From positions 1 to 60,688 of IMG/VR virus record IMGVR_UViG_3300037510_000159: a stretch of DNA of 60,688 nucleotides; one strand, 5' to 3'. The DNA comes from a virus. Lineage: Duplodnaviria; Caudoviricetes. The position numbers were made by a program, and so were the translations under genes. Each line of letters starts with the position of its first letter. Within the stretch, counting starts at the first letter, position 1. The notes beneath the pieces are model-generated. The model worked only from the letters and a program-made list of their open reading frames with translations. It did no database searches and was not told where the DNA came from. Below are positions 16,554 to 35,389 of this stretch, in pieces.

Positions 16554-16798
16554 GTGAACAGGCGCGCGAACGCGAAGGCGGCGGCAAACAAAGCCGCACC
16601 CGCAGTTACGCTGGACACGACCAGCACCCACGGCGCCATGCCGATCTCCTGGCGGACCCGGTTGTGCTGCGCCAGGGTCAGGTCGGTGCGAGCCAGAATG
16701 TCGTTTATGCTGACGCGCGCCTGATCGTGCTGCGCCAGCATAAGATCGATGCGCGCAATCTTCTCGCGAATATCGAGCGCGGAGGTTGTGTCGCTCAT
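16550..16798 (-). CDS. Small coiled-coil protein with C-terminal TM
   Basis: 82 aa; APWVLVVSSVTAGAALFAA tail. Confidence 0.65.
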   Translation of the reverse strand: MSDTTSALDIREKIARIDLMLAQHDQARVSINDILARTDLTLAQHNRVRQEIGMAPWVLVVSSVTAGAALFAAAFAFARLFT

Positions 16799-17487
16799 AC
16801 GACGTGCCTCCAGAGCCTGCCGGCGCTGATGGCCTTGATGGTGTTGATCGACATGCCGTAGCGCTCGGCATAGACCGCCAGCGTCTCCTTGTGGGACCGG
16901 ATCTCGCGCACCGCAGCCTCAGTGAGCCGCGACCGCGGATTGTCCTCTCCCCTCAGGTTAGTCTCAGGCTTGCCGTGATACTTGCGGATGGAAGGCCGCT
17001 TATTGACGGCCTGCTCGGCATGTGTCGCCCAGGTACAGTTGGCGGCTGAATAGCCGAGGGCATTATCCAATCGCTCGATCGTGTGCTGCTCAGTCGGCGG
17101 ATCACCCATGTCGCGATAGAAGGCATCGAAGGATGCCGCCCATTCATCGCTGACCGTGACGCCGGCGCCGCCGTACCGCGCGAAATTAACGGCCTTCGGG
17201 TCGAGACAGCGGGTCCGCATTGCGAGCCATGCGCGATAGACACGGGTCCGCTGGCCCTTTTTTGCCTGCCCGTGGCGGGTATTCATTAACCCCGGCATGT
17301 CCTGCCGCCAGCAGCCGCAGGATTTGGTTTTCCCGCTCTTCAGAAACGAGCCGTAAACGACGACACGCTTGCCGCAGTCGCAAAGGCACTGCCATGCGGC
17401 GTGCCGGTTGATCGACCCGGCGCGCTCCTCCACAAGGAGCCGTCCGTATCGCTCCCCCGATCGCAATTCTGTAGCTGGCCTTGGCAT
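16795..17487 (-). CDS. Free-standing HNH-type homing endonuclease
   Basis: GERYGRLLV..WQCLCDCG..KSCGC, W.AMR.RC, YGGAGV.V..EW, HTIERLDN..GYS..NC.WAT motifs plus C-terminal HTH. Confidence 0.85.
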   Translation of the reverse strand: MPRPATELRSGERYGRLLVEERAGSINRHAAWQCLCDCGKRVVVYGSFLKSGKTKSCGCWRQDMPGLMNTRHGQAKKGQRTRVYRAWLAMRTRCLDPKAVNFARYGGAGVTVSDEWAASFDAFYRDMGDPPTEQHTIERLDNALGYSAANCTWATHAEQAVNKRPSIRKYHGKPETNLRGEDNPRSRLTEAAVREIRSHKETLAVYAERYGMSINTIKAISAGRLWRHVV

Positions 17488-17493
17488 TTCGCA

Positions 17494-17533
17494 TCTCCCG
17501 ATATAATGGCAACGAGGCCATTATATCGAGAGA
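17494..17533 (-). promoter_or_regulatory. Hairpin overlapping RBS of endonuclease gene, containing TATAAT
   Basis: Perfect 12-bp inverted repeat CGATATAATGGC/GCCATTATATCG (17499-17510/17517-17528) extending into the GGGAG RBS. Confidence 0.6.
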
Positions 17534-17590
17534 CACATGTCCCTAATCTACGTCAATTTGACGCAGGCGGAACGGAACGTAGCTCAGAAA

Positions 17591-17661
17591 CTAAAGCAGA
17601 TCCGCGACGACCGCGAGCCCAGCCTCGTTCCTCACTTCCAAAGTGTACTCGGTTACCATAT
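17591..17661 (-). CDS. Major capsid protein exon 3
   Basis: (Y)MVTEYTLEVRNEAGLAVVADLL* completes the SU10/DUF5309-type capsid C-terminus in frame after splicing. Confidence 0.85.
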
Positions 17662-17941
17662 CAGGAATGTTATCGCGCGGCTCTTTATCCGTGCTTCTGC
17701 CGCTCACACGGCAGCTCAGACTATATCAGCACCTCATTGCCGATCCTGGCAGTGAGGGCCGGGCGCTCGTGGGCCGATTATTCTTTCGTCACGGCCTAGT
17801 CGTTGGACCTTCCGCATCCCTGGCGCTTGCGCGTTACATATGCGGCTTGGCTGCTGATTGCCCTCGGCATTACCCGGTGGGGTTTCCCAGCAATTCACCC
17901 GGTTATTCGACAGGCGTCGCCGCCTGAAGGGCCAATGGTTT
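17662..17941 (-). mobile_element. Group I intron 2 (280 nt, no ORF)
   Basis: Exon ends in U, intron ends in G; P AATTGCTGGGAAA, Q AATCAGCAG, R CAACGACTA, S GATATAGTCT; ACCAT can pair with 3' exon ATGGT (P10). Confidence 0.9.
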
Positions 17942-18674
17942 AGCCTTTCTCGCTATCTCCAGTCACCGCCAGGTCGATGGTCTTCAACGGCCGCAGTGAA
18001 GAGAGGGCGAGCAGGGACGTGTCGAGAAGGTGAACTTCCCGGTCACGTTGGAAGCGGTTGGCGACGACTTTGTGCGTACCGAAATCCGAGCGATAGATCT
18101 CGATGTTGGTCATCAGACGTGCGTCGGAAGTGTCTTGCACCCTTTGCACGTTGCCGGTGAATTTACTGATATTCACCTTGTTGCTGGGACCGCACATGAT
18201 CAGGTCGATCTCGCCGCCCTGCGTCCACGCCGCCTGTATCTGCCCCGTCACCAGGGCCTCGGTCAGCGCACGCTGCGTGCCATCCTGAACTGCAGCGGCA
18301 GCGCCGCCATTGGCTCCGGTGGCGCCGCGTGACGTGTTGGTCGCGTACCATTGAATAAGCGACCGCAGCACGCGGGGGGTTGTGCTGTTACCAGCATTCG
18401 GCACAACATTGTTGTTGTGGATCAGCACGAACTCCATGTCCCTGCGGATCTCTTTGTTTCTTTTTGTAAGCTGGTAAACGATCTCGCGGCGGCGCCCGGC
18501 AGTATTAACTGCATTTTGCGTGCCCGAGATCACACAGTTTTTCGAGGAAATCTGGCAGCGATTGCCAAGCCTCGTCGTCGGCGTCACGGTCTGGAAGAAC
18601 CCGGCCGTGCCGCTGTCGTCACCTTCAAGCTGCGCGTTTGGACCCGCAGCAGCAAGTTGATCGCTCTGCCACTC
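17942..18674 (-). CDS. Major capsid protein exon 2
   Basis: EWQSDQL..NAQLEGDD..RLGNRCQI..SGTQ..KEIRRDME..YRSDFG..NRF..LAVTGDSEK, an SU10-type (DUF5309) capsid. Confidence 0.9.
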
Positions 18675-18972
18675 CAAGGGAGCTGTTACTTCGGCGCCGC
18701 GATTAAGCGCCTCTGACCATCATAAACGATGGCGGCCCGTCATTTCTGCGGGCTCTCCGGCTCTCACCGGAGGTCGGGCTCTATCATCATCCCCCGCCGA
18801 GCGGAGGCGTCCGACATATAGTCTCTGAGGGTCCGGCTAATGTACCCAGCCGTCTTCCCTGCTGATTGCCCATTGTAACATCCGGCCGATTGTCACTGCT
18901 TTCGCGAGTACGGACGGCTTTAGGGGTTTCCAGCAAATAGTCGGATTTTACATGCACAAGTGGACTTTATTT
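18675..18972 (-). mobile_element. Group I intron 1 (298 nt, no ORF)
   Basis: CAU|AAAU 5' site with P1 partner GTGCATG; P TTGCTGGAAA, Q AATCAGCAGG, R TCAGAGACTA; terminal G before GAG TGG; CCACT can form P10. Confidence 0.9.
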
Positions 18973-19116
18973 ATGCATGACAGCGGTAGCTTTGTTCTTG
19001 CTGATCGCGTCCTGAAAGGGGGTATCTACAGGACTTATAAGGTAAATTTGATCAGCCAGGTCTTCCCTGTTCCCGACGGCAGAGAAGGTAAGAAACGCGT
19101 TTTGTTGGATAGCCAT
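18973..19116 (-). CDS. Major capsid protein exon 1 (spliced product 315 aa)
   Basis: MAIQQNAFLTFSAVGNREDLADQIYLISPVDTPF..KATAVMH joins EWQ in frame. Confidence 0.9.
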
Positions 19117-19124
19117 GATCAGCC

Positions 19125-20270
19125 CTAGATCTGGGACAAGATCGCGTCGATGCGCACGTCCAGTGGCTGGCGCGGATCGCGTCCAAGTTTGCGCATGGCA
19201 TTGCGCTGTGGGCGGGCTGCTTGGCCTGTGTTTCCTTCGCTGTTGCCCGGCGAGGCCGCAAGGCGCGGCGTCGGGGCCTGACGCTTGTCCGCAGTCGCTT
19301 GGCGGGCTGCGGTGCGCTGTGCCTGAGTAGTGGTTTGCTGTGCCACCATCTCGTGGTACTTGCGCGCGTCCTCGAACGCTTTTGCCACCCGTGCGTCGCG
19401 TATGACGGCGACGTCGGCCGGCTTAAACCCGTATTGCTTAACCGCGAAAGCTCGAACTATGTCGAGGCCCTCTTTCGCCTTTTGAAGGGTTTCGGCTTGG
19501 TCTTTTCCGTGCCACTCGGGCATGGATTGGACGAGCTTGATGCCCTCCTGGGCCAGCTTCTCGTGAGTTATTTGCGCGTCGATCGCATCGCGTTGCTTGA
19601 CGGCGGCGTCGAAATGCGCCCGGCGCTGTTGGTAAGCAAACCAGAGTTGTTGCGTTCCGGCAGGGTCTTCTGCTGCCGCTTTTGTCCAATCCAAATTCTG
19701 GCCTGCGGTCAGAACGGGATCAAACTGCTCAGCTAAGGAAATGTAGGTTGTAGCCTGCTCCACATAGCGTTGCCGCTCTTGTCGTGTCGCCTGGACCTCG
19801 GGCTCAAAAGCCTGTCGGACCTCGGCGAATGCGGACTGAAGCCGGCGGACCTCACCGTCACGTTGTCCCTCCCGCGAGCGGATGTACTCCTGGGTCGCAC
19901 GAGGGAGCTTCTGCCAGTGCTCGGCCTGCTCTTTGTCCCAAAACGGCGGCGGCTCGATGGGCGGACCTGCGTCCGGCTCGGGCTTTTCGTCGTCTTCTTC
20001 GTCGCTGGGCTGATCTTCCTCAGGTGCGACGTCAGCATCCCCGGCTTCTGCCGGGGCCTGATCCTGCTCTTCGTCTTCAGCGGCGCCATCGCCTTTCGGC
20101 TTGTCGTCCAGCTTGTCGACGATGTTATCCACCAAGGCGTCGAGGCCGCCGCCGCCCATGATGTCGGCCGCTCCATTATCGGAGTGGCACAAAGAGGGCG
20201 GGCAATAGTCGAGCGGCAACTCAGGGCGATGCAAAGCTTCGCCCGACCCCAAAAGGAGGCGTTTAAACAT
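19125..20270 (-). CDS. Capsid scaffolding protein
   Basis: Acidic N-terminus, PPFWDKE..W.KLP motif, coiled coil; directly upstream of capsid gene. Confidence 0.8.
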   Translation of the reverse strand: MFKRLLLGSGEALHRPELPLDYCPPSLCHSDNGAADIMGGGGLDALVDNIVDKLDDKPKGDGAAEDEEQDQAPAEAGDADVAPEEDQPSDEEDDEKPEPDAGPPIEPPPFWDKEQAEHWQKLPRATQEYIRSREGQRDGEVRRLQSAFAEVRQAFEPEVQATRQERQRYVEQATTYISLAEQFDPVLTAGQNLDWTKAAAEDPAGTQQLWFAYQQRRAHFDAAVKQRDAIDAQITHEKLAQEGIKLVQSMPEWHGKDQAETLQKAKEGLDIVRAFAVKQYGFKPADVAVIRDARVAKAFEDARKYHEMVAQQTTTQAQRTAARQATADKRQAPTPRLAASPGNSEGNTGQAARPQRNAMRKLGRDPRQPLDVRIDAILSQI

Positions 20271-24057: not shown

Positions 24058-26754
24058 CTACAGCTCCATCTGCGGTGCCGGTTGCGCCTGCGCCCGGGCC
24101 GCGGTTGCCGCAATGTCCGCGTTGGCCTTGGCGACGTCGATCTCGCGCTTGACCTGGGCATCTCGCATGTCGTCCGCGGCCTCGTGCTGAGCCCGCATGC
24201 TCTCGATGTCGGCCTGCGCCTGCGCCCGGGTCATCTCGAGCCGCATCTCGTGCTCGGCGCGGCGCTGGTTGAGCTCCATCTCGAGCTGCGCCTTCTGGCG
24301 CTGGGCGTCCAGCTCGGCCTGCAGCTTGGCCTGACCCATCTGGGCCTCGAGCTGGGCCTTCTGCTGCATCGTGTGCGCGTCGAGCTGCGCCTTCTGCATC
24401 TGGATCTGGCCGTCGATCTGCGCCTTCTGCTGCTGCACTTGGATCTGCGCCTGCGCCAGGGCCATCGTCGGGTCGGGCTTGTCGGGCGGCGGCGGGTGCG
24501 ACGGCGGCGCGGATGGGTCGGCGTAGTACGGATCCACCGTCCCGAGCCCGGTGTACTCGACCAATTTTTTCAGCTTCGCGTGCAAGTGCTCGGCATAGAG
24601 AAGCGGCCCGTTGAGGCCCTGCTGAAATGTTATGATTTTCTCGTCGAGGGCCAGCATCGCCAGGATGTTCTTGCCGAGCCGCTCCTGGCTCCCGGTGCCG
24701 AGCCCGACGGTCACCGTCATCAGCATCCCGGTATCCCACTCGCGCGGGTTTATCTCGACATACTGCCCGCCGATCTTCTCCATCGTCGGCTTCTTGCGAT
24801 GCATGCTTTCGAGCTTGAGGATTAACCTCATCGCGCGCTTGTATCCGGTCTCGGCGAAATTCCTGGCGATAAACCGGATGCGCTCTTTTGTGCTGTCGTC
24901 GACCAGCATCGCGCCGGTCGCCGTGTCGGTGTACGCGTTGTTCAATACATCGGCGCCGGGGCCTTGTGCGAAGCGGCGCAGCCCGGTGCGTACCTCGCGC
25001 ACCGAGTCCATCATCGCGATCATCGTGTAGGCGTCGGCCGCCACCGGCAATGTCGGGATCGCCTGCATCGCGTCGGCCGGGTTGCCGGTGATCCGCACGA
25101 TGCCGCCCGGCCGCCGGGTCACGAGGTCGTCGATCGTGACCCTGGCCGGGTCGACGGCCAACTGCGGCGCGTTGGCGTTGTAGACCGTGTCCAAGGCGCC
25201 GCGGACCAAAACGCTCTTGATCTCCTGAATGTCGGAGACCTTCTCGGTCAACGACCCGCCCCAGAAAGCGTGCGGCTCCGGGTACGGCGTCAGCGAGCAG
25301 AACGGGTTGTCGTCGACCTCCTCGTTCTGCAAAATCAAGTCCGCGCCGTCGCTCTCGCCGGCCGACACGACGGCACGCATCTCGGCATAGCCGTCGCCGT
25401 CGTAATCACACCGGATAAAAGCCTCGACGACCCACACGCGCCGGCGGGTCTCGTCAAATTCCTCGCCGTCCTCGTCGCCCTGGTCCTGATCGGCGTAGCG
25501 GTCGATCCGCGCGATGTCGCCGGTGGCGTGGCCTCCGGGCAGCGCCATGATCTCGTCCGCGAAATCCGGAAAGCGTTGCGCCAGCTCGCCGACCGGCTGC
25601 AGGTAGCGGTGCGCGGTGAACCCGTTGCCCTCGAGCTTGGAGCTGCGCGCCGAGATCAGGAACTCGTCAAGCGGCACCGCGGCGATGCGGATGCGGCCCT
25701 CCATGTTGGTCCGCCGCACGACCATGTCGTGGACCTGCGGCCCCCCATTTGGCGCCAAGGGGGGCGCCATTTGGGGCGGCATGGCCTGCGGGCCCGGCCC
25801 CAGCGGTCCCGGCGGCATCATCCCTGGCGGCATGGCCGGGCCTGGAGCCGCACCATCCGGGGGAGGAACAGGTGGCGGCCCCGCGCTCGGTTGGGGACCG
25901 GGCGGCCCAGCCATGCCTGGCGGCGGGCCTTGCGGCCCAGGAGGCGGCCCCATTGGCATCGAGCCCGGGGGCATCGAGCCCGGGGGCATCGAGCCCGGGG
26001 GCATCGAGCCCGGGGGCATCGAGCCCGGGGGCATCATGCCTTGCGGGGGCATTCGAGGGGGCGGAGGTGCGCCGGGAGGCCCGGCACCGTTTAAACGCGG
26101 TCCCGGCATACCCGGGGGCATGCCCGGCGGCGGCACCATCATCCCGTCCGGCGGTCCCTGCGGCACCATGCCGGCGAGCCCGGCCACGATCATTGCGGCC
26201 TGCGCCTGCGGATCCGGACGCGATTGGAGATCGACGATCTCGACGTCTTCTTCCTCCGCCAGCATCTGCGCCGACAGGTCGGAGAGGTCGCGATAAACTT
26301 CGCGCGTCACCTTTGGTGTATCATCCCACCAGATCTTAATGATGCCGTTCTTGAAGCGCAGCGCGTCGTGCATCCAGGCATAGCTCGTCAGATACCCGTC
26401 GTCGCTCTTTCTCCAGCATCGATTAACGTATTCGGTGGCCTGGTCAGCTTGTGCGCAGCGCTTGCTGACCTCATCCGCCGGCATGTTGTAGTAGATATTC
26501 GGCTCGAACCTGCAAATCTCGGCCGTGGTCTCGAAGATCTCCATCAGAGCCGGCATGCTCTGGTCGATCGCCTCCGCCACGTCGCGGCTGACGACCTGGC
26601 TGCGCCCCTTGACCTCCGAACCCAGCGGGTCGCCGCGGTAATACCGCAGCGCGTTGATGCGGCTCGTTGCCAGCGACGAGCTGTTGTCGCCGCCTGCCGC
26701 CGCAATCTGCGCCGACAGCAGCGAGCACAGCGTCATGTCGTCCATCTTGGGCAT
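24058..26754 (-). CDS. Portal protein (P22-like) with Pro/Gly/Met-rich insertion
   Basis: ALRYYRGDP..EVKGRSQVVSRDV, DALRFKNGIIKIWWD, CDYDGDG.AE, TATGA motifs; Gln-rich coiled-coil C-terminus. Confidence 0.9.
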   Translation of the reverse strand: MPKMDDMTLCSLLSAQIAAAGGDNSSSLATSRINALRYYRGDPLGSEVKGRSQVVSRDVAEAIDQSMPALMEIFETTAEICRFEPNIYYNMPADEVSKRCAQADQATEYVNRCWRKSDDGYLTSYAWMHDALRFKNGIIKIWWDDTPKVTREVYRDLSDLSAQMLAEEEDVEIVDLQSRPDPQAQAAMIVAGLAGMVPQGPPDGMMVPPPGMPPGMPGPRLNGAGPPGAPPPPRMPPQGMMPPGSMPPGSMPPGSMPPGSMPPGSMPMGPPPGPQGPPPGMAGPPGPQPSAGPPPVPPPDGAAPGPAMPPGMMPPGPLGPGPQAMPPQMAPPLAPNGGPQVHDMVVRRTNMEGRIRIAAVPLDEFLISARSSKLEGNGFTAHRYLQPVGELAQRFPDFADEIMALPGGHATGDIARIDRYADQDQGDEDGEEFDETRRRVWVVEAFIRCDYDGDGYAEMRAVVSAGESDGADLILQNEEVDDNPFCSLTPYPEPHAFWGGSLTEKVSDIQEIKSVLVRGALDTVYNANAPQLAVDPARVTIDDLVTRRPGGIVRITGNPADAMQAIPTLPVAADAYTMIAMMDSVREVRTGLRRFAQGPGADVLNNAYTDTATGAMLVDDSTKERIRFIARNFAETGYKRAMRLILKLESMHRKKPTMEKIGGQYVEINPREWDTGMLMTVTVGLGTGSQERLGKNILAMLALDEKIITFQQGLNGPLLYAEHLHAKLKKLVEYTGLGTVDPYYADPSAPPSHPPPPDKPDPTMALAQAQIQVQQQKAQIDGQIQMQKAQLDAHTMQQKAQLEAQMGQAKLQAELDAQRQKAQLEMELNQRRAEHEMRLEMTRAQAQADIESMRAQHEAADDMRDAQVKREIDVAKANADIAATAARAQAQPAPQMEL
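25956..26035. repeat. 5 x 15-bp tandem repeat (MPPGS) in portal
   Basis: GCATCGAGCCCGGGG repeated five times exactly. Confidence 0.95.
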
Positions 26755-26797
26755 GGGCGATGGCGCCTCTATAATCTGTGGGACGGACGGAGGAGAG

Positions 26798-26956
26798 ATG
26801 CGCGCAGCGCCAAAACCAGTCGTGTTCAGCGAGCCCGAACTGGAGGAGCTGAAACGGCTCCTCCTGCGGGAGCTTGAGCAGCGCGGCTGCGCCGCTGACC
26901 CCGCGGCCACAACCGCTCTGTTCAAGCTGGTGGAAGCGGCAAGGGTGAGGGAGTAA
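26798..26956 (+). CDS. Hypothetical protein, first gene of antisense operon
   Basis: TATAAT at 26770 and GGAGGAG RBS; 52 aa. Confidence 0.6.
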   Translation: MRAAPKPVVFSEPELEELKRLLLRELEQRGCAADPAATTALFKLVEAARVRE

Positions 26957-26959
26957 CCA

Positions 26960-27697
26960 ATGGGCGAAAGCAAACGACGCAACCTTGCGGCTCAGGTCCA
27001 AACTCGTTTGGACCGACCACATTGCCCGGTACACCCGAGCATCGCCCAGATCGAGGCGCCGGCCCGCATCCGCCGGCTCCGGCTCGACCACCGCGGCTTC
27101 CCGGTGCCCTGGTTCGTGGCATGGGTCGACGGCAAGGCGGATCACCGCATCATCGACACACCCAAGCTCGTGTCGGCCATAAAGCAGCGCCTGTGCTGGA
27201 CGTGCGGCGAGCCGCTGGGCAAGACCTACGCTTTCCTCATCGGCCCGATGTGCGCCGTCAACCGGGTCATCTCCGAGCCGCCGTCCCATCGCGAATGCGC
27301 CGAGTATGCGGTGGCGGCGTGCCCGTTTCTGTCGCGGCCGGAAGCGCACCGCCGCACCGCCGGCATGCCGAACGTCGACCTGGCCTGGGCCGCGGGCAAC
27401 GGCTTGAAGCGCAATCCCGGCGTTACCTGCCTCTGGATCACCCGCTCCTACAAGCCGTTCCGCGTGCCCGGCAACAGCCACGGCAACGCTGGGATCCTGT
27501 TTGAGCTGGGGCCGCCGATCGAAACCGTGTGGTACGCCCTGGGCCGGCGCGCGAGCCATCAGGAGGTCGCCAGCGCGCTCTACTCCGGCCTGCCGGCGCT
27601 GATCGAGGTCGCGCACGAGGAAGGCCGCGAGGCCGAGGACGCTCTCGCCGGCATGGTCGCCGCCGCGATGCCGCTGCTGCCGGCGGCGGCATCATGA
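26960..27697 (+). CDS. Conserved phage Cys/His-rich protein
   Basis: GFPVPWFV..LCWTCGEPL..FLIGPMC.VNR.ISEPPSHRECAEYA..ACPFL. Confidence 0.75.
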   Translation: MGESKRRNLAAQVQTRLDRPHCPVHPSIAQIEAPARIRRLRLDHRGFPVPWFVAWVDGKADHRIIDTPKLVSAIKQRLCWTCGEPLGKTYAFLIGPMCAVNRVISEPPSHRECAEYAVAACPFLSRPEAHRRTAGMPNVDLAWAAGNGLKRNPGVTCLWITRSYKPFRVPGNSHGNAGILFELGPPIETVWYALGRRASHQEVASALYSGLPALIEVAHEEGREAEDALAGMVAAAMPLLPAAAS

Positions 27698-29867: not shown

Positions 29868-31631
29868 TCAGTCTGCGGCCAGCTTGCGCTTGCCCGCCTC
29901 GACGCGCTGTATTTGCTGCCCCAGCCATTTAATGACCGGGACGGCCATACTGTTACCCAACGCTTTGTACTTATTGCCATCCGCCGCGGGTTTGTTGCGG
30001 TAGGTGACGTCCAGCCAGTCGTCAGGAAATCCCTGCAATCTACAACATTCTTTTGGGGTTAGCCTGCGCACCGACATGCCTTGCCGGACGCCTTGCTGGA
30101 TGTTGCTGCCGTCGTGGGGCGGGTGCGCCTGAAGCGTCGGGTAGACCGGCCGCTCCCACGCATAGCCGTTGGATTGCTCGCTCGCGGTGAAGGCAACCGC
30201 CGGCCCGCCTCCGGTGATGTTGGCGATGCCGTCATCGCGGTACTCAAGATCGTGACTGTCGCCCCGCCCGCGAATGGCGAGGGTGAGGACAGCCGGCGTG
30301 CGCTCGACGCCCAGCGTCATAAACACGTCTTCGCTGTTCGGCCCGCCTGCGCTGTTCTTCCAATCCACCGCGAGCACATGCGGCACGGCGTTGGGGCAGA
30401 CCCCGCGCTCCTCGCCCATCCCGCCGGATTGCAGCGACATGGCCACGGCGTCCGTGGTGCCATTGCGGAGGTCTACCGCCACCAGCGGCGCCCCGCGCCC
30501 GGTCCCGTCCTGGCTGGCATCGAACCCGTCGGCGCGCAGGGTGTGGGGTACGAGCAGATTTTCATCAATCGGATTGTTGGCGTGGCCGTCGATGAGCAGG
30601 GGCGTGGCGATAAGCGTGGCTTCCTTACTTCCCGAGCCAGCCGACATATCGCGCAGGCCGGTCGCGACCTCCGCGTCGTTCCACCAACCTTGGCCGGTGT
30701 TGTTGAAGGCGACCGCGTGCGCCGCCCCGCTGTCGAGCGTCGGGGCAATCCCCTCGCTGACGTTGAAGCCGGGATCGCGCAGCCTGACCCGTCCCTCGGC
30801 GTCAGGCGACGGCGTCCTGGCCTCGCCGGAGCGGGCAGCGTCGGAGCGGATACCGTAGGCGACGGCGTGCTGCTTGCCAGCGGAGCCGGCGACCTGATGG
30901 TCAAACGTGATCAGGCTGTCGGCGGTGTCGGCGTCGTTGCGGTATCCGCTGCCGCCTGCAGGGCGGCTTGCAGTTGGCCGGGCAATTCTTTGCCCCGCTT
31001 CGCGGCGCGGCGCAGGATCCCCGAGCACGCTTTCGCCGACAGGAAATAACGCGGATGCACAATCCCAGTTTCCAGCACCTCGTGAAGCGACGACAAACAC
31101 ACGTCGTCTCCGCTGGGGGACGCCGAAAAATTGCGCGTCGAGGATGCGCCAGGCCGCCGTCCTTTTTGGCCCAGCAGCCACACCCGCGTTTGACCAGCGC
31201 TGTCCCGCATCCGGAACGAGGGGTCCGTCCGATCCGACCAATCGCCCCAGAAAGTGTCCGAAGCTGTTGTCGGCCATCGAGAGCCAGCCGGGGACGTTTT
31301 CGGTGAGGGACCATTCAGGGTCGAGGCGATCGAGGGCCTCAACGTAGGCGAGACTGAGGTTGCCACGCGGGTCCGATAGCCCGCCGCGGTTTCCGGCAAC
31401 GGAAAATCCCTGGCAGGGTGGCCCTCCAACAACAACGGCAACAGGCTCAACTGCACGCCAATCCACCTTTGTGACGTCGCCCAGATTTGGCGTTTGCGGG
31501 TAATGGTGCGCCAGGACGGCGCAGGCGAACGGGTCCACCTCGGCCACCCAGGCACAGCTCCAACCGAGCGGAATCCAGGCCGCGCTCGCCGCCTCTATGC
31601 CGCTGAAGAGCGACCCGAAACGCAGCGTCAA
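29868..31631 (-). CDS. dcm: C5 cytosine DNA methyltransferase
   Basis: Motif I SLFSGI, IV GGPPCQGFS, VI ENVPG, VIII QRRRRVF, IX RRLTPKEC.RLQGFP, X KALGNS; long variable region. Confidence 0.92.
   Translation of the reverse strand: MTLRFGSLFSGIEAASAAWIPLGWSCAWVAEVDPFACAVLAHHYPQTPNLGDVTKVDWRAVEPVAVVVGGPPCQGFSVAGNRGGLSDPRGNLSLAYVEALDRLDPEWSLTENVPGWLSMADNSFGHFLGRLVGSDGPLVPDAGQRWSNAGVAAGPKRTAAWRILDAQFFGVPQRRRRVFVVASRGAGNWDCASALFPVGESVLGDPAPRREAGQRIARPTASRPAGGSGYRNDADTADSLITFDHQVAGSAGKQHAVAYGIRSDAARSGEARTPSPDAEGRVRLRDPGFNVSEGIAPTLDSGAAHAVAFNNTGQGWWNDAEVATGLRDMSAGSGSKEATLIATPLLIDGHANNPIDENLLVPHTLRADGFDASQDGTGRGAPLVAVDLRNGTTDAVAMSLQSGGMGEERGVCPNAVPHVLAVDWKNSAGGPNSEDVFMTLGVERTPAVLTLAIRGRGDSHDLEYRDDGIANITGGGPAVAFTASEQSNGYAWERPVYPTLQAHPPHDGSNIQQGVRQGMSVRRLTPKECCRLQGFPDDWLDVTYRNKPAADGNKYKALGNSMAVPVIKWLGQQIQRVEAGKRKLAAD
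30911..31555 (-). CDS. Nested out-of-frame ORF in methyltransferase (beta-subunit-like); start uncertain
   Basis: +1 frame open; SSLHEVLE..HPRYFLSAKACSGILRRAAKRGKELP..LQAAL reads as real protein. Confidence 0.5.
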   Translation of the reverse strand: MPGWPRWTRSPAPSWRTITRKRQIWATSQRWIGVQLSLLPLLLEGHPARDFPLPETAAGYRTRVATSVSPTLRPSIASTLNGPSPKTSPAGSRWPTTASDTFWGDWSDRTDPSFRMRDSAGQTRVWLLGQKGRRPGASSTRNFSASPSGDDVCLSSLHEVLETGIVHPRYFLSAKACSGILRRAAKRGKELPGQLQAALQAAADTATTPTPPTA

Positions 31632-31831
31632 CGCCCGTACACCGAGCGCCTGACGATCTGGATGGCGTGGTTGCCGAGGGTCACGGTGCGCGTCTCGCCG
31701 GCCGCGTCGGCCCACCTGACCTCGCCGGTCGCATCGTCGGCCAGCGTCAGCTTGCCCTTGCCCTCGACAGAGGCGAAGCTGTCCAGCCGCACCGCGCTGT
31801 AGTTGCGCGCCGCCTCGCCATCGACGCGCAT
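31628..31831 (-). CDS. Hypothetical protein
   Basis: AGGAGG RBS; 67 aa; TTGA overlap with dcm. Confidence 0.65.
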   Translation of the reverse strand: MRVDGEAARNYSAVRLDSFASVEGKGKLTLADDATGEVRWADAAGETRTVTLGNHAIQIVRRSVYGR

Positions 31832-33044: not shown

Positions 33045-33230
33045 TTATGCCGATTTCATATCGGGCTTGTGCAGGCGAGCCCGCAGCTCGACGACCTCGA
33101 GCTCGAGGCGCTTCACGTCGAGCCGGAGCTGGTCGATCGCCGCGGACATCTGCCGGATATGCTCGTGCATGCCCTGGTTGCCGTTGACATTGGCGTACAG
33201 CCGCTCAAGCGGCATATCGGCATCAGGCAC
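33045..33230 (-). CDS. Small coiled-coil protein
   Basis: 61 aa, coupled to terL stop. Confidence 0.5.
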   Translation of the reverse strand: MPDADMPLERLYANVNGNQGMHEHIRQMSAAIDQLRLDVKRLELEVVELRARLHKPDMKSA

Positions 33231-35389
33231 TAAACGATCCCCCGGTCGTCATACACAATCGGCCGCGTCATGGCCTCGTCGTCCGAGCGCAGGTTGGCGA
33301 GAGCCAGGTAGCGCCAGGCGTCGCTGTTGCTAACAAGGATCCCGTTTGCCTGATAGCACGCGTGGTTTACGACGGTAAGGTCGTACACCCACGTTGCGCC
33401 CTCTGCGCTGGCGCAGGTTTTCAGCTTTGCAATTCGGGTGGCACCACTTGGCAAGCGTAGGATAAGGCGAAAGAAACGGCTGGCCGCACTGCTGGCAGAT
33501 GCACTCGTGCCAAACCCTGTGCTCCCAAGCGCGGCGGCCATTCTCTTGGTGCCATTCCAGCCCCTCCGGGCTCGCGTGCCATTCAGCAGCCCGCTGAAGC
33601 GCCAGGGCGCTTGGCGGCGGAAGCGGCTTGGCCGCATAGTTCTCACGAGAGTGCAGGCTTCGATGGGCGCGCCGCTCGATGCACTGAAGGTTATCGATGG
33701 CGTTGTTAAGAGAATTGCCATCCTTGTGATGGATCTGACAGCCTTCCGGTATAGGCCCGTAGTGGCTTTCCCACATTGCCCGGTGGAGATAGATCGTTGG
33801 CCGACTGAGCGGCGCTCTGCGCGGCCCTGTCCGCACATAATAGCCGCCCGAAAGCCAGTATTTGTTGCCCTCAAACACCACGATATGAGCCGGATCGTCC
33901 ATTCATCGCCCCTAAATACCCCGTCTGAGTATCTTAGGGCAGATGCTTCGATAAAGCCACGATTTGTCAGCACTTTATGCTCTCGTGAACAGCGAATTTG
34001 CCGCCCGTCGGCGAGGTCGATCTCCACCAACTCCGCAATCTGCTTTACCGGGCCGGCATGGCTCACGCGAGAATGCCCGCAAGGTGTCCATACGCTATCG
34101 CCTGCCAGCACCTCAGCGATCGGCCGCAGCCCCGCATCCGTCAATACGAGCGCATCCGCCGTCAGACACGCGTGGCTCGCCCAGTCGTGTAGAGGCCGAT
34201 CGTGGAATGCCTTGCGCCGGTCGTCCCACTCGCGCCGGTAGTTGCGCAGGCAGTTGACGCCGCGCTCGGTCGGCGCCTCGTCAAACCAGGCGCGGGCCAG
34301 CAGCAGCCTGCCGGCGTTGATGCCGTCAGCAACGCTCGAGGGCGGCAGGATGCGCGTGCGACGCAGCCCGAGGCTGCACAGCGTCTCCTCGCGCGTCCGC
34401 CCGGTGCCCAGCTCCTTGGCCGCAGCATCGTGCGGCAGGATGTGCTCGCCCCAGCGGCAGTCCCACTTGTCGAGCTCCTTGGCGTACCACTCCAGGCCGA
34501 CGCCCGAGTTCTGGATGTAGCCGACGACCCTGATCTGCATCCCGACGACCTGCACCAGCCAGATCGCGGTGTCGTCGCCGATCCCCAGATCCCAGGCCGT
34601 ATGCACCGGGTAGCCTGGGTCGAGCGGCACCGGGCAGATGCGATGCTCGGCGTCGATCTTCTCGAATTGTGGGCCAAAGTAACCGCCAATGACGCCGGCG
34701 TCGAAAGAGCAGAGATACTCCTGAGCGTAGCGGTTTTGCCCGTCCTCAGGGCCATACTCCTTGATCATGTCGGCCCGCTCGGAGGCCAGCTGCTCCGCGG
34801 TGAAAACGCTCGTGTCCTGAGCGCTCAGCAGCTCGACAAACCAGTCCGGATCGCGTTTGTGGGCGTCGAAGAAGGTGCTGCCGTGGTTGCGGCCCCTGGG
34901 CGTGTAGACGAATAAGGCCCAGCCTTGGTTTTCCAGCAACATCGGCCGGATGAAGGCCCAGGCGCTGGGGTTGGCGAGCGCCCACTCGCTGAAGACCACG
35001 CCCGCCGGCGCAGATCCCACTAAACTGTCGTAATTGTCCGACCCGGCGAGCTGGTACACGGACCCGTTGCGGAAACGGATCATCATCTCGTTTTCGAGGG
35101 TCGTTTCCCGCAGCGCAAGCGGGAACGCCTCGTCTATCCGGCGCTTGCCGGTGTGGGCGTCGACCGCAGTCCAGATCGCCTTGCGCGCCTGCGCTTGCTC
35201 TGGAAGCAAATGCCAGTAATTGGCGACCCTCATATGAGCCGCGACAGCTATGTGATGAAGAGCAACGGCATCTTTCCCCGAGCGCCTATGCCAAACAGCG
35301 ATGGCACGCTTGCCGCCGCCCTCCAGATAGCGCCACAAGGGCTTCTGGTAGCTCCTGGGACGCCACTGGTGCGGTAAGACCAGCTCCAT
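33230..35389 (-). CDS. terL: Terminase large subunit (intein-containing precursor; 438 aa after splicing)
   Basis: WHRRSGKD Walker A, VVFSEW Walker B, YTPRGRNH, AWDLGIGDDT nuclease and HDWASHA-SDAWRY motifs. Confidence 0.95.
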   Translation of the reverse strand: MELVLPHQWRPRSYQKPLWRYLEGGGKRAIAVWHRRSGKDAVALHHIAVAAHMRVANYWHLLPEQAQARKAIWTAVDAHTGKRRIDEAFPLALRETTLENEMMIRFRNGSVYQLAGSDNYDSLVGSAPAGVVFSEWALANPSAWAFIRPMLLENQGWALFVYTPRGRNHGSTFFDAHKRDPDWFVELLSAQDTSVFTAEQLASERADMIKEYGPEDGQNRYAQEYLCSFDAGVIGGYFGPQFEKIDAEHRICPVPLDPGYPVHTAWDLGIGDDTAIWLVQVVGMQIRVVGYIQNSGVGLEWYAKELDKWDCRWGEHILPHDAAAKELGTGRTREETLCSLGLRRTRILPPSSVADGINAGRLLLARAWFDEAPTERGVNCLRNYRREWDDRRKAFHDRPLHDWASHACLTADALVLTDAGLRPIAEVLAGDSVWTPCGHSRVSHAGPVKQIAELVEIDLADGRQIRCSREHKVLTNRGFIEASALRYSDGVFRGDEWTIRLISWCLRATNTGFRAAIMCGQGRAERRSVGQRSISTGQCGKATTGLYRKAVRSITRMAILLTTPSITFSASSGAPIEACTLVRTMRPSRFRRQAPWRFSGLLNGTRARRGWNGTKRMAAALGSTGFGTSASASSAASRFFRLILRLPSGATRIAKLKTCASAEGATWVYDLTVVNHACYQANGILVSNSDAWRYLALANLRSDDEAMTRPIVYDDRGIV
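33326..34168 (-). mobile_element. Intein (281 aa) in terL nuclease domain
   Basis: Block A CLTADALVLT..G.RPI.EV..GD.V, block B IRCSREHKVLT, blocks F/G VYDLTV..H.Y.ANGILVSN followed by Ser+1. Confidence 0.92.
33330..33902 (-). CDS. HNH homing endonuclease nested out-of-frame within the intein
   Basis: ATG after AGGGG; YLHRAMWESHYGPIPEGCQIHHKDGNSLNNAIDNLQC HNH motif plus CQQC..CHPNC zinc finger. Confidence 0.88.
   Translation of the reverse strand: MDDPAHIVVFEGNKYWLSGGYYVRTGPRRAPLSRPTIYLHRAMWESHYGPIPEGCQIHHKDGNSLNNAIDNLQCIERRAHRSLHSRENYAAKPLPPPSALALQRAAEWHASPEGLEWHQENGRRAWEHRVWHECICQQCGQPFLSPYPTLAKWCHPNCKAENLRQRRGRNVGVRPYRRKPRVLSGKRDPC

Follow-up and report, generated by a model that had tools for sequence, protein, structure and literature searches.

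Two short group I introns in the major capsid gene of an uncultured tailed phage

The classic group I introns of phages interrupt the td, nrdB and nrdD genes of T4 and the DNA polymerase gene of SPO1 (PMC3706429, PMC12350094), and a 2025 paper describes a preference of phage group I introns for genes of nucleotide synthesis and DNA metabolism (PMC12350094). In mycobacteriophage LittleE, a group I-type intron lies in the major capsid gene, and its splicing was demonstrated by reverse transcription-PCR (RT-PCR) and N-terminal sequencing; the same paper cites a group I intron in the gene for a capsid subunit in lactococcal phage Tuc2009 (PMC3706429). Essential genes of the Jug jumbo phages are split into two or three fragments by group I introns of ~206 nt, alongside many stand-alone HNH genes, with metatranscriptome reads supporting splicing of 37 of 76 introns (PMC12880540). 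Two introns in late-transcribed genes of Lactobacillus phage JCL1032 have also been cited (PMC6669764). We analyzed a window that comprises one complete virus record (IMG/VR record IMGVR_UViG_3300037510_000159; Duplodnaviria, Caudoviricetes; 60,688 nt, 64.7% G+C, estimated to be ~71% complete) from an uncultured, soil-type phage. Its major capsid gene, on the minus strand at 17591-19116, is split by two group I introns that carry no open reading frame (ORF). Very probably, these introns are selfish mobile elements that were recently exchanged and that must splice for the 315-aa capsid protein to be made.

We reconstructed the capsid gene from its exons (Table 1). The ORF list contains a single long ORF in the capsid region (17940-18677, 245 aa), which equals exon 2, as an initial annotation of this DNA had remarked. 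The same annotation had proposed that removing 18675-18972 and 17662-17941 restores the capsid gene, and the exon join bears this out, since 144 + 733 + 71 = 948 nt are in frame and yield 315 codons plus a stop. The boundary sequences (a slash marks each junction) are ..CAT/AAAT...CTTG/GAG.. for intron 1 and ..GGCT/AAAC...CCTG/ATATGG.. for intron 2. Both introns end in G and follow a U at exon position -1, in agreement with the U/G splice boundaries first described, and shifting either boundary by one base breaks the U rule, the G rule or the protein.

The joined protein aligns contiguously with its homologs. Against the Pfam profile SU10_MCP (PF17236, cut-off 24.1 bits), exon 1 matches profile positions 5-43 (30.2 bits), exon 2 positions 44-269 (211.3 bits) and exon 3 positions 271-291 (16.6 bits, alone under the cut-off); combined, the three exons tile positions 5-291 of 292, and they likewise tile the major head protein PHROG 1328. 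Exon 2 has 811 homologs at E ≤ 0.001. In all 14 full-length, intron-less homologs that were aligned (311-318 aa), the joined protein is gap-free at both junctions, with exon 1 aligning to their N-termini and exon 3 to their C-termini, as expected by the initial annotation. The nearest homolog (P0002, 75% identity) has identical residues spanning both junctions. Consequently, the intron/exon structure is confirmed to the base by alignment, and the predicted product is an SU10_MCP / DUF5309 major capsid protein.

We searched the record with covariance models of group I introns. Both introns exceed the gathering score of Rfam RF00028 (50 bits), intron 2 at 17697-17951 (70.6 bits, E 6e-16) and intron 1 at 18755-19049 (64.3 bits, E 5e-14), and there is no further group I match anywhere in the 60,688-nt record, even at E ≤ 1. 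The Rfam core of intron 1 is 18755-18972, with the 5′ third of the alignment misplaced into exon 1. Because the covariance-model coordinates run into exon 1, we took the limits of intron 1 from the protein alignment and the U/G rule. The ORFs inside both introns are only 30-94 aa long in the ORF list, and neither intron, at 298 and 280 nt, is roomy enough for an endonuclease gene. The original call of two ORF-less group I introns therefore stands. The two introns look unrelated to each other. Intron 1 lacks P2 and a helix between the 5′ strand of P7 and the 3′ strand of P3, and its 3′ extension hairpins exceed the Rfam model; intron 2 has P2 and a hairpin between the same two strands.

Intron 1 has homologs at the identical codon (H/E-W-Q) of four other SU10-type capsid genes, found by a core-motif scan and blastn (L083, 298 nt; L222, 274 nt; L248, 256 nt; L217, 255 nt). 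We dropped L241 from this family, as it is identical to L222. In the window, the P1 duplex between the guide sequence and the end of exon 1 has a folding energy of -8.5 kcal/mol, equalled by 16 of the 941 8-mers of the spliced messenger RNA (mRNA), and P10 has -8.2 kcal/mol, equalled by 21 of the 941. We counted P1, P10, P3 and P7 on a splice-site-anchored MAFFT alignment of five sequences and ran RNAalifold on a separate alignment, in which the 10-nt 5′ exon was scrambled. P1 is paired in 35 of 35 cells, and three of its seven pairs change on both sides, the exon/guide combinations being AUGCAU/GUGCAU, UACCAU/GUGGUA and CUGCAU/GUGCAG. On this alignment, the guide sequence of intron 1 tracks the codon changes of its exon. 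The cleavage-site U·G and the terminal G are invariant in all five sequences, P10 carries a C-G to U-A change in two of the five, and P3 has two compensatory pairs. RNAalifold returned 69 pairs, 11 of them compensatory, and predicted P10 independently. P3, P6a, P8 and the P9 extensions are compensatory, P4, P5 and P6 are invariant, and P7 keeps its conserved G-C pair.

For intron 2, we aligned 11 family members from several capsid genes between P3 and the 3′ end, with the P7 pseudoknot added; L123 was excluded, its 3′ end having failed to align. Among 469 cells, 97.7% are paired, compared with 80.0 ± 1.1% in shuffled alignments and 28-42% with slid partners. Double-sided changes occur in 32 of 47 pairs, versus 11.7 ± 2.1 in shuffled alignments (none of 500 reached the observed number) and 2-5 with slid partners. 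Ten helices were tested; P7 has five canonical pairs out of five, invariant across the family, and the terminal G is found in all 11 members. The P1 of intron 2 was placed by the Rfam alignment, and its duplex has -8.2 kcal/mol. Together with the RF00028 matches, the covariation in relatives substantiates the core elements first recognised in both introns.

The same evidence bears on whether the inserts are handled in some other way, as inteins, by translational bypassing or by programmed frameshifts. Both inserts contain stops in all three frames and score as group I RNA with covariation, and the exon 2/exon 3 junction changes frame mid-codon. Nothing specific points to such handling, apart from a possible intein-like insert, weakly matched, in the phage's terminase, and we consider it barely credible.

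We compared the locus with L083, another metagenome contig, which is ~92% identical across roughly 3.1 kb and carries both introns at the same sites. Intron 1 is identical at 297 of 298 positions and intron 2 at 272 of 280. Exon 2 is identical at 673 of 733 positions, with 26 of 130 fourfold sites differing (20%), and the identity of exons 1 and 3 is about 79-80% (72 of 90 in the aligned part of exon 1, or 67 of 86 on another, longer alignment, and 56 of 71 in exon 3). The codon differences in exon 2 are 54 synonymous and one non-synonymous, which indicates that both phages need the capsid protein and hence probably splicing.

Purifying selection on the ribozymes, rather than recent transfer or gene conversion, could in principle have kept the introns of the two phages nearly identical, because ribozyme cores are constrained and P4, P5, P6 and P7 are invariant across the family. 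We find this explanation unlikely. Functional introns related to intron 1 that occupy the same site share only 73-76% identity with it (24-27% divergence) and differ in their loops and peripheral hairpins. Most positions are thus free to vary, and constraint by itself does not account for how nearly identical the introns of the window and L083 are. Moreover, one difference in the 298 nt of intron 1 stands against 20% at the fourfold sites of the adjoining exon. The better reading is that the introns would have been exchanged recently between related phages, later than the surrounding genes diverged.

The distribution of the introns is patchy. In L083, nt 1-128 are the 3′ part of a third intron, related to intron 2, which ends in G just before CAA ATC TAC (Q-I-Y). 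This GAT/CAA site is uninterrupted in the window, whereas an intron occupies it in L083 and in a number of more distant capsid genes; the breaks seen in relatives fall at profile positions ~20-23, with 5′ junctions ..GAT/TAA (L114) and ..AAT/TAA (L101). We therefore find presence/absence polymorphism at a fixed site together with introns less diverged than their exons. Among 80 related viral capsid loci, 74 are single and uninterrupted, two are interrupted (L009, L015) and four are cut by locus ends or have divergent N-termini. One of seven metagenome loci is interrupted, namely L083. When placed on the protein alignment, the three sites used in the window and L083 fall within motifs that are invariant or nearly so (H48-E49-W50, D288/K291 and the N16-Y25 block).

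These counts also speak to the possibility that the introns have been co-opted as regulators, with splicing efficiency (responding to GTP level, translation or temperature) gating the capsid, and are kept by phage selection. Having to splice twice to make the most abundant late protein would offer an obvious point of control. For the LUZ24 intron, spliced as well as unspliced reads have been reported, in a paper that also cites condition-dependent splicing in T4 (PMC10914365). Yet the 74 relatives without any intron, and the presence of two versus at least three introns in 92%-identical phages, are as expected of dispensable parasites, and no sensor is indicated by the sequence. Regulation of this kind is, in our judgement, quite improbable.

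Several observations weigh against the interpretation of the introns as splicing, recently exchanged mobile elements. The Rfam alignment of the 5′ third of intron 1 has a low posterior probability. In the window and L083, the P7 of intron 1 has an A·C mismatch beside the conserved G-C, where three relatives have A-U, and that C occurs in just two of the 46 non-redundant members of the family. In the window, a further A·C mismatch lies in the terminal hairpin of intron 2; the corresponding pair of L083 is A-U. The P1 energy of intron 2 is not selective (192 of 941 mRNA 8-mers pair equally well), and its P10 is at chance (484 of 941). The P1 and P10 pairings first proposed are accordingly selective for intron 1; those of intron 2 can be drawn, with energies at chance level. 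Given these energies, it is the protein alignment, together with the U/G rule and the Rfam P1 alignment, that supports the boundaries of intron 2. Exon identity to L083 declines within ~14 nt of intron 1, a co-conversion tract that is short for homing driven by an endonuclease. Finally, the endonuclease-like gene downstream of the capsid gene has no Pfam family at E ≤ 0.01, and it is 89% identical to that of L083 (618 of 693 positions), having diverged with the genome and not with the introns.

The two A·C mismatches, and a record estimated to be only ~71% complete, would also fit introns of which one or both are catalytically dead, the capsid gene being a decaying pseudogene in a defective phage or remnant. 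The 54 synonymous differences against one non-synonymous, between two independent contigs, and a join without frameshift or stop argue otherwise. Both phages retain the two introns that bear mismatches. Of the eight differences between their copies of intron 2, two are compensatory pairs, and the adjacent portal, scaffold and tail genes are intact. A dead capsid gene is thus very improbable.

Table 1. Positions of the capsid gene parts, intron elements and downstream features in the window
Feature	Positions	Strand	Description
Capsid exon 1	18973..19116	minus	codons 1-48; ATG 19116-19114; ends ...CAT
Empty intron site	19050..19051	minus	GAT/CAA, between codons D22 and Q23
Group I intron 1	18675..18972	minus	298 nt, ORF-less
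Intron 1 P10 partner	18958..18963	minus	CCACUU; pairs with first 6 nt of exon 2
Intron 1 internal guide sequence	18951..18957	minus	GUGCAUG; P1 with last 7 nt of exon 1, U·G at splice site
Capsid exon 2	17942..18674	minus	codons 49-292 and first base of codon 293
Group I intron 2	17662..17941	minus	280 nt, ORF-less
Intron 2 internal guide sequence	17926..17933	minus	GGCC.CUU...; pairs with exon 2 ...GAA.GGCU, U·G at splice site
Capsid exon 3	17591..17661	minus	last two bases of codon 293 to codon 315; TAG stop 17593-17591
Hairpin	17491..17536	minus	20 bp; capsid-endonuclease spacer
Endonuclease-like gene	16795..17487	minus	230 aa; begins 103 nt downstream of capsid stop

In the proposed mechanism, the capsid gene would be transcribed, probably together with the upstream scaffold gene, and each intron would fold into a group I core whose guide sequence pairs with the end of the upstream exon (P1, with a U·G at the cleavage site). 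An external guanosine would then cut the RNA, and the terminal G and P10 would join the exons. Only the doubly spliced mRNA would encode the 315-aa capsid protein; it follows logically from the predicted gene structure that capsid output would depend on splicing. The introns would be selfish mobile elements, not parts of the capsid, and their lineages would repeatedly occupy conserved capsid-gene motifs. Because they have no endonuclease gene of their own, they would most likely spread by recombination during co-infection, maybe aided in trans by the downstream endonuclease.

A homing endonuclease is absent from both window introns (298 and 280 nt), and intron relatives in L090 and L015 carry endonuclease ORFs. 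The endonuclease-like gene downstream of the capsid gene matches PHROG 374 'HNH endonuclease' (E 1.2e-56) and four further endonuclease PHROGs, and its relatives (36-40% identity) adjoin intron cores in L133, L160, L264 and L268. It may be a candidate trans-acting homing enzyme for the introns. Since it diverged with the genome rather than with the introns, a role in moving them can only be hypothesized.

The spacer between the capsid and endonuclease genes contains a hairpin with a folding energy of -33.7 kcal/mol (z -7.0), and none of 200 shuffled sequences folds as well. Its 3′ arm includes GGGAG, a Shine-Dalgarno-like motif just upstream of the endonuclease ATG (17487), and the spacer is 95% identical in L083, better conserved than the flanking genes. 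The hairpin may serve translational control of the endonuclease or may be a transcript-end structure.

We next asked which genes the same intron lineages occupy. Core-motif scans of the viral collection returned more than 114 stretches with the intron 2 motif and 71 with the intron 1 motif. In 24 of the 185 loci, a local hidden Markov model (HMM) search found an SU10-type capsid beside the intron core, broken near profile positions 20-23, 31, 48-51, 54, 111-120, 241-244 and 290. The SU10/DUF5309 capsid family has at least seven distinct insertion sites, all in conserved motifs. We then tallied the PHROG annotation of the longer flanking ORF in 140 non-redundant occurrences, a host-gene sample biased by search motifs that were derived from capsid introns. 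Major head proteins, from at least 10 PHROG capsid families, account for 34 of the 140 and endonucleases for another 34; 27 flanking ORFs have no PHROG match. The remainder are scaffold or head assembly (7), DNA polymerase (7), Rpb1-like (phrog_25354; 5), tape measure (4), tail sheath (4), transposase (4), ribonucleotide reductase (2), ATPase (2), terminase (1) and other genes (9). The transposase-like flanking ORFs (PHROG 506 / 2577) adjoin core motifs in L097, L228, L242 and L259.

As a comparison, a sample collected with Rfam-consensus motifs has no PHROG major head protein at E ≤ 1e-8 among 82 non-redundant flanks, versus 31 of 140 in the capsid-motif samples. This sample comes largely from giant eukaryotic viruses, and 14 of its flanks have Pfam assignments: seven Rpb1, six major capsid proteins of nucleocytoplasmic large DNA viruses (NCLDV) and one LAGLIDADG endonuclease. 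Being mostly from giant viruses, it is evidence neither for nor against a preference of phage introns for capsid genes. In the giant-virus loci L286, L297, L298, L299, L302, L353, L291, L334, L338 and L352, core motifs flank the NCLDV capsid (six loci) or Rpb1, and four giant-virus Rpb1 flanks also give weak Intein_splicing matches.

The densest arrangements are found in two loci with exons only ~25-150 aa long. Six RF00028 matches above the gathering score lie within 2.4 kb of L153 (200-2408) and four within 1.9 kb of L118 (841-2695). The two genes are homologous, with 76% identity between their last exons, both of which hit the major head protein PHROG 1357 (E 2e-4 and 3e-9, respectively). 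These data suggest that the intron lineages of the window often sit in capsid genes, with apparently up to six introns per gene. A stronger proposition, which we put forward tentatively and hold at a little under even chances, is that their main niche in environmental tailed phages would be late structural genes, above all the major capsid gene, and not nucleotide-metabolism genes. If true, capsid genes would be a large, overlooked ribozyme reservoir, and gene callers would systematically break up the principal marker gene of phages. Our wider tally casts doubt on the preference stated in PMC12350094, but a biased sample does not settle the matter.

Several capsid loci have further features of their own. 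In L090 (754-2486, minus strand), an intron with the core and 3′ hairpin of intron 2 splits a capsid gene of a different family (PHROG 9953, major head protein), with profile positions 3-92 and 94-328 on either side; it contains a 219-aa endonuclease-like ORF (PHROG 5046, with a weak LAGLIDADG_3 match). In L015 (3230-3920), an insert of ~700 nt breaks an SU10-type capsid gene near residue 238 and contains a 165-aa ORF (PHROG 5046, E 1e-4) and a sub-threshold group I match of 33.8 bits. In L009 (1685-2520), an SU10-type capsid is encoded in three exons (residues 1-31, an 18-residue mini-exon and the remainder), and RF00028 matches neither of the two inserts, even at E ≤ 10. The second insert of L009 starts 4 nt downstream of where intron 1 sits in the window and has the P1 logic of the intron 1 family, a P7-like strand and the conserved 3′ tail. 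At its would-be P6 tip lies a gene resembling a transfer RNA (tRNA), tRNA-Thr(CGU), at 2286-2356 (Rfam tRNA 58.3 bits; ARAGORN), and the arrangement resembles a group I-like capsid-gene intron with a tRNA nested in it. In the metagenome contig L089 (916-3722), capsid-like matches on both strands (~916-1828 plus, 3722-2791 minus) suggest two divergent capsid-like genes in opposite orientation. An intron 2-like stretch of L248 (1111-1174) was rejected as a second intron, with no Rfam match at E ≤ 0.001.

The window's capsid gene belongs to an SU10-type head module, as judged from its neighbours. Upstream of it are a portal gene (24058-26982; PF23899, 525 bits) and a scaffold gene (19125-20270; PHROG 3927) that ends 8 nt ahead of the capsid ATG; virion and tail genes follow downstream. 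A site search found no promoter-like site between the scaffold and capsid genes, so these two genes are likely co-transcribed. On the plus strand of the region, there is no ORF with any match and no Rfam match. Elsewhere in the window, the ORF of the terminase large subunit (33230-35389, minus strand, 719 aa) has its terminase match at residues 5-392 and a weak Intein_splicing match at residues 440-688 (26.9 bits, under the 35.8 cut-off), and may carry an intein, as this weak match hints. A C-5 cytosine methyltransferase ORF (29868-31715, minus strand, 615 aa) has family matches at ~30-256 and ~492-611, separated by an insert of more than 200 aa without a family match.

The proposed gene structure has consequences for the phage and for its annotation. 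There would be no capsid unless both ribozymes work, which would tie virion yield to RNA folding. A gene caller recovers only a 245-aa piece in the window, and pieces of 100 aa in relatives that carry four to six introns; such fragmented calls undercount and mis-cluster the marker gene most used for phage taxonomy and ecology. The locus is also a natural system for the movement of ORF-less introns, with a guide sequence that tracks codons, introns that appear far younger than their host gene, and a 92%-identical phage with an extra intron.

The arrangement is already documented in capsid genes and is not new in kind. The initial annotation had contrasted it with the classic introns of DNA-metabolism genes, which is fair, except that the capsid introns of LittleE and Tuc2009 had already been published. 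In a search of the full-text literature, with supplements and subscription journals outside its scope, PMC3706429 was the sole source of capsid introns, counting the Tuc2009 intron that it cites, and there was no report of widespread or multiple capsid introns in tailed phages. Capsid introns are not described in the excerpts of PMC9769974, PMC8557907, PMC3888941 and PMC10914365, and the main text of an intron database paper mentions neither phage nor capsid (PMC11835236). Among GenBank phages, there is no close relative; exon 2 is at most 43% identical to any, all 15 matches listed being single-piece, and for the introns, matches are limited to short core segments of introns that lie in other genes.

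Compared with known systems, the locus resembles LittleE in having an intron in the major capsid gene of a tailed phage, with a U at the exon end, a G at the intron end and intron-less alleles in close relatives; LittleE also has free-standing HNH genes elsewhere in its genome (PMC3706429). It differs from LittleE, whose single 819-bp intron carries a LAGLIDADG-type endonuclease gene and which has another capsid family and an actinobacterial host (PMC3706429). The window instead has two short, ORF-less introns, predicted to splice, in an SU10/DUF5309-type capsid gene. A single gene of Staphylococcus phage Twort is said to contain three group I introns, as Landthaler and Shub reportedly described in 1999; its host and intron lineages differ from those of the window. 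In cyanophages, an ORF-less intron in psbA and an adjacent free-standing homing endonuclease reportedly engage in 'collaborative homing'. The endonuclease-like gene of the window similarly adjoins the interrupted gene, a likeness that offers a lead only. Tuc2009, as cited in PMC3706429, shares a capsid-gene group I intron with the window and differs in having a single intron and a low-GC Gram-positive host. The example host genes of the Jug introns are terL, nrdD and DNA polymerase, with no capsid intron in the main-text passages (PMC12880540). The T4 and SPO1 introns belong to the same ribozyme class and also lie in conserved motifs of essential phage genes, but those genes serve nucleotide metabolism or replication and many of the introns encode their own endonuclease (PMC3706429, PMC12350094). 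The value added to these systems lies in the intron lineages, which seem to occur often in capsid genes and to reach six introns per gene, and the case is more interesting as an entry point to capsid-frequenting intron lineages than as a single instance.

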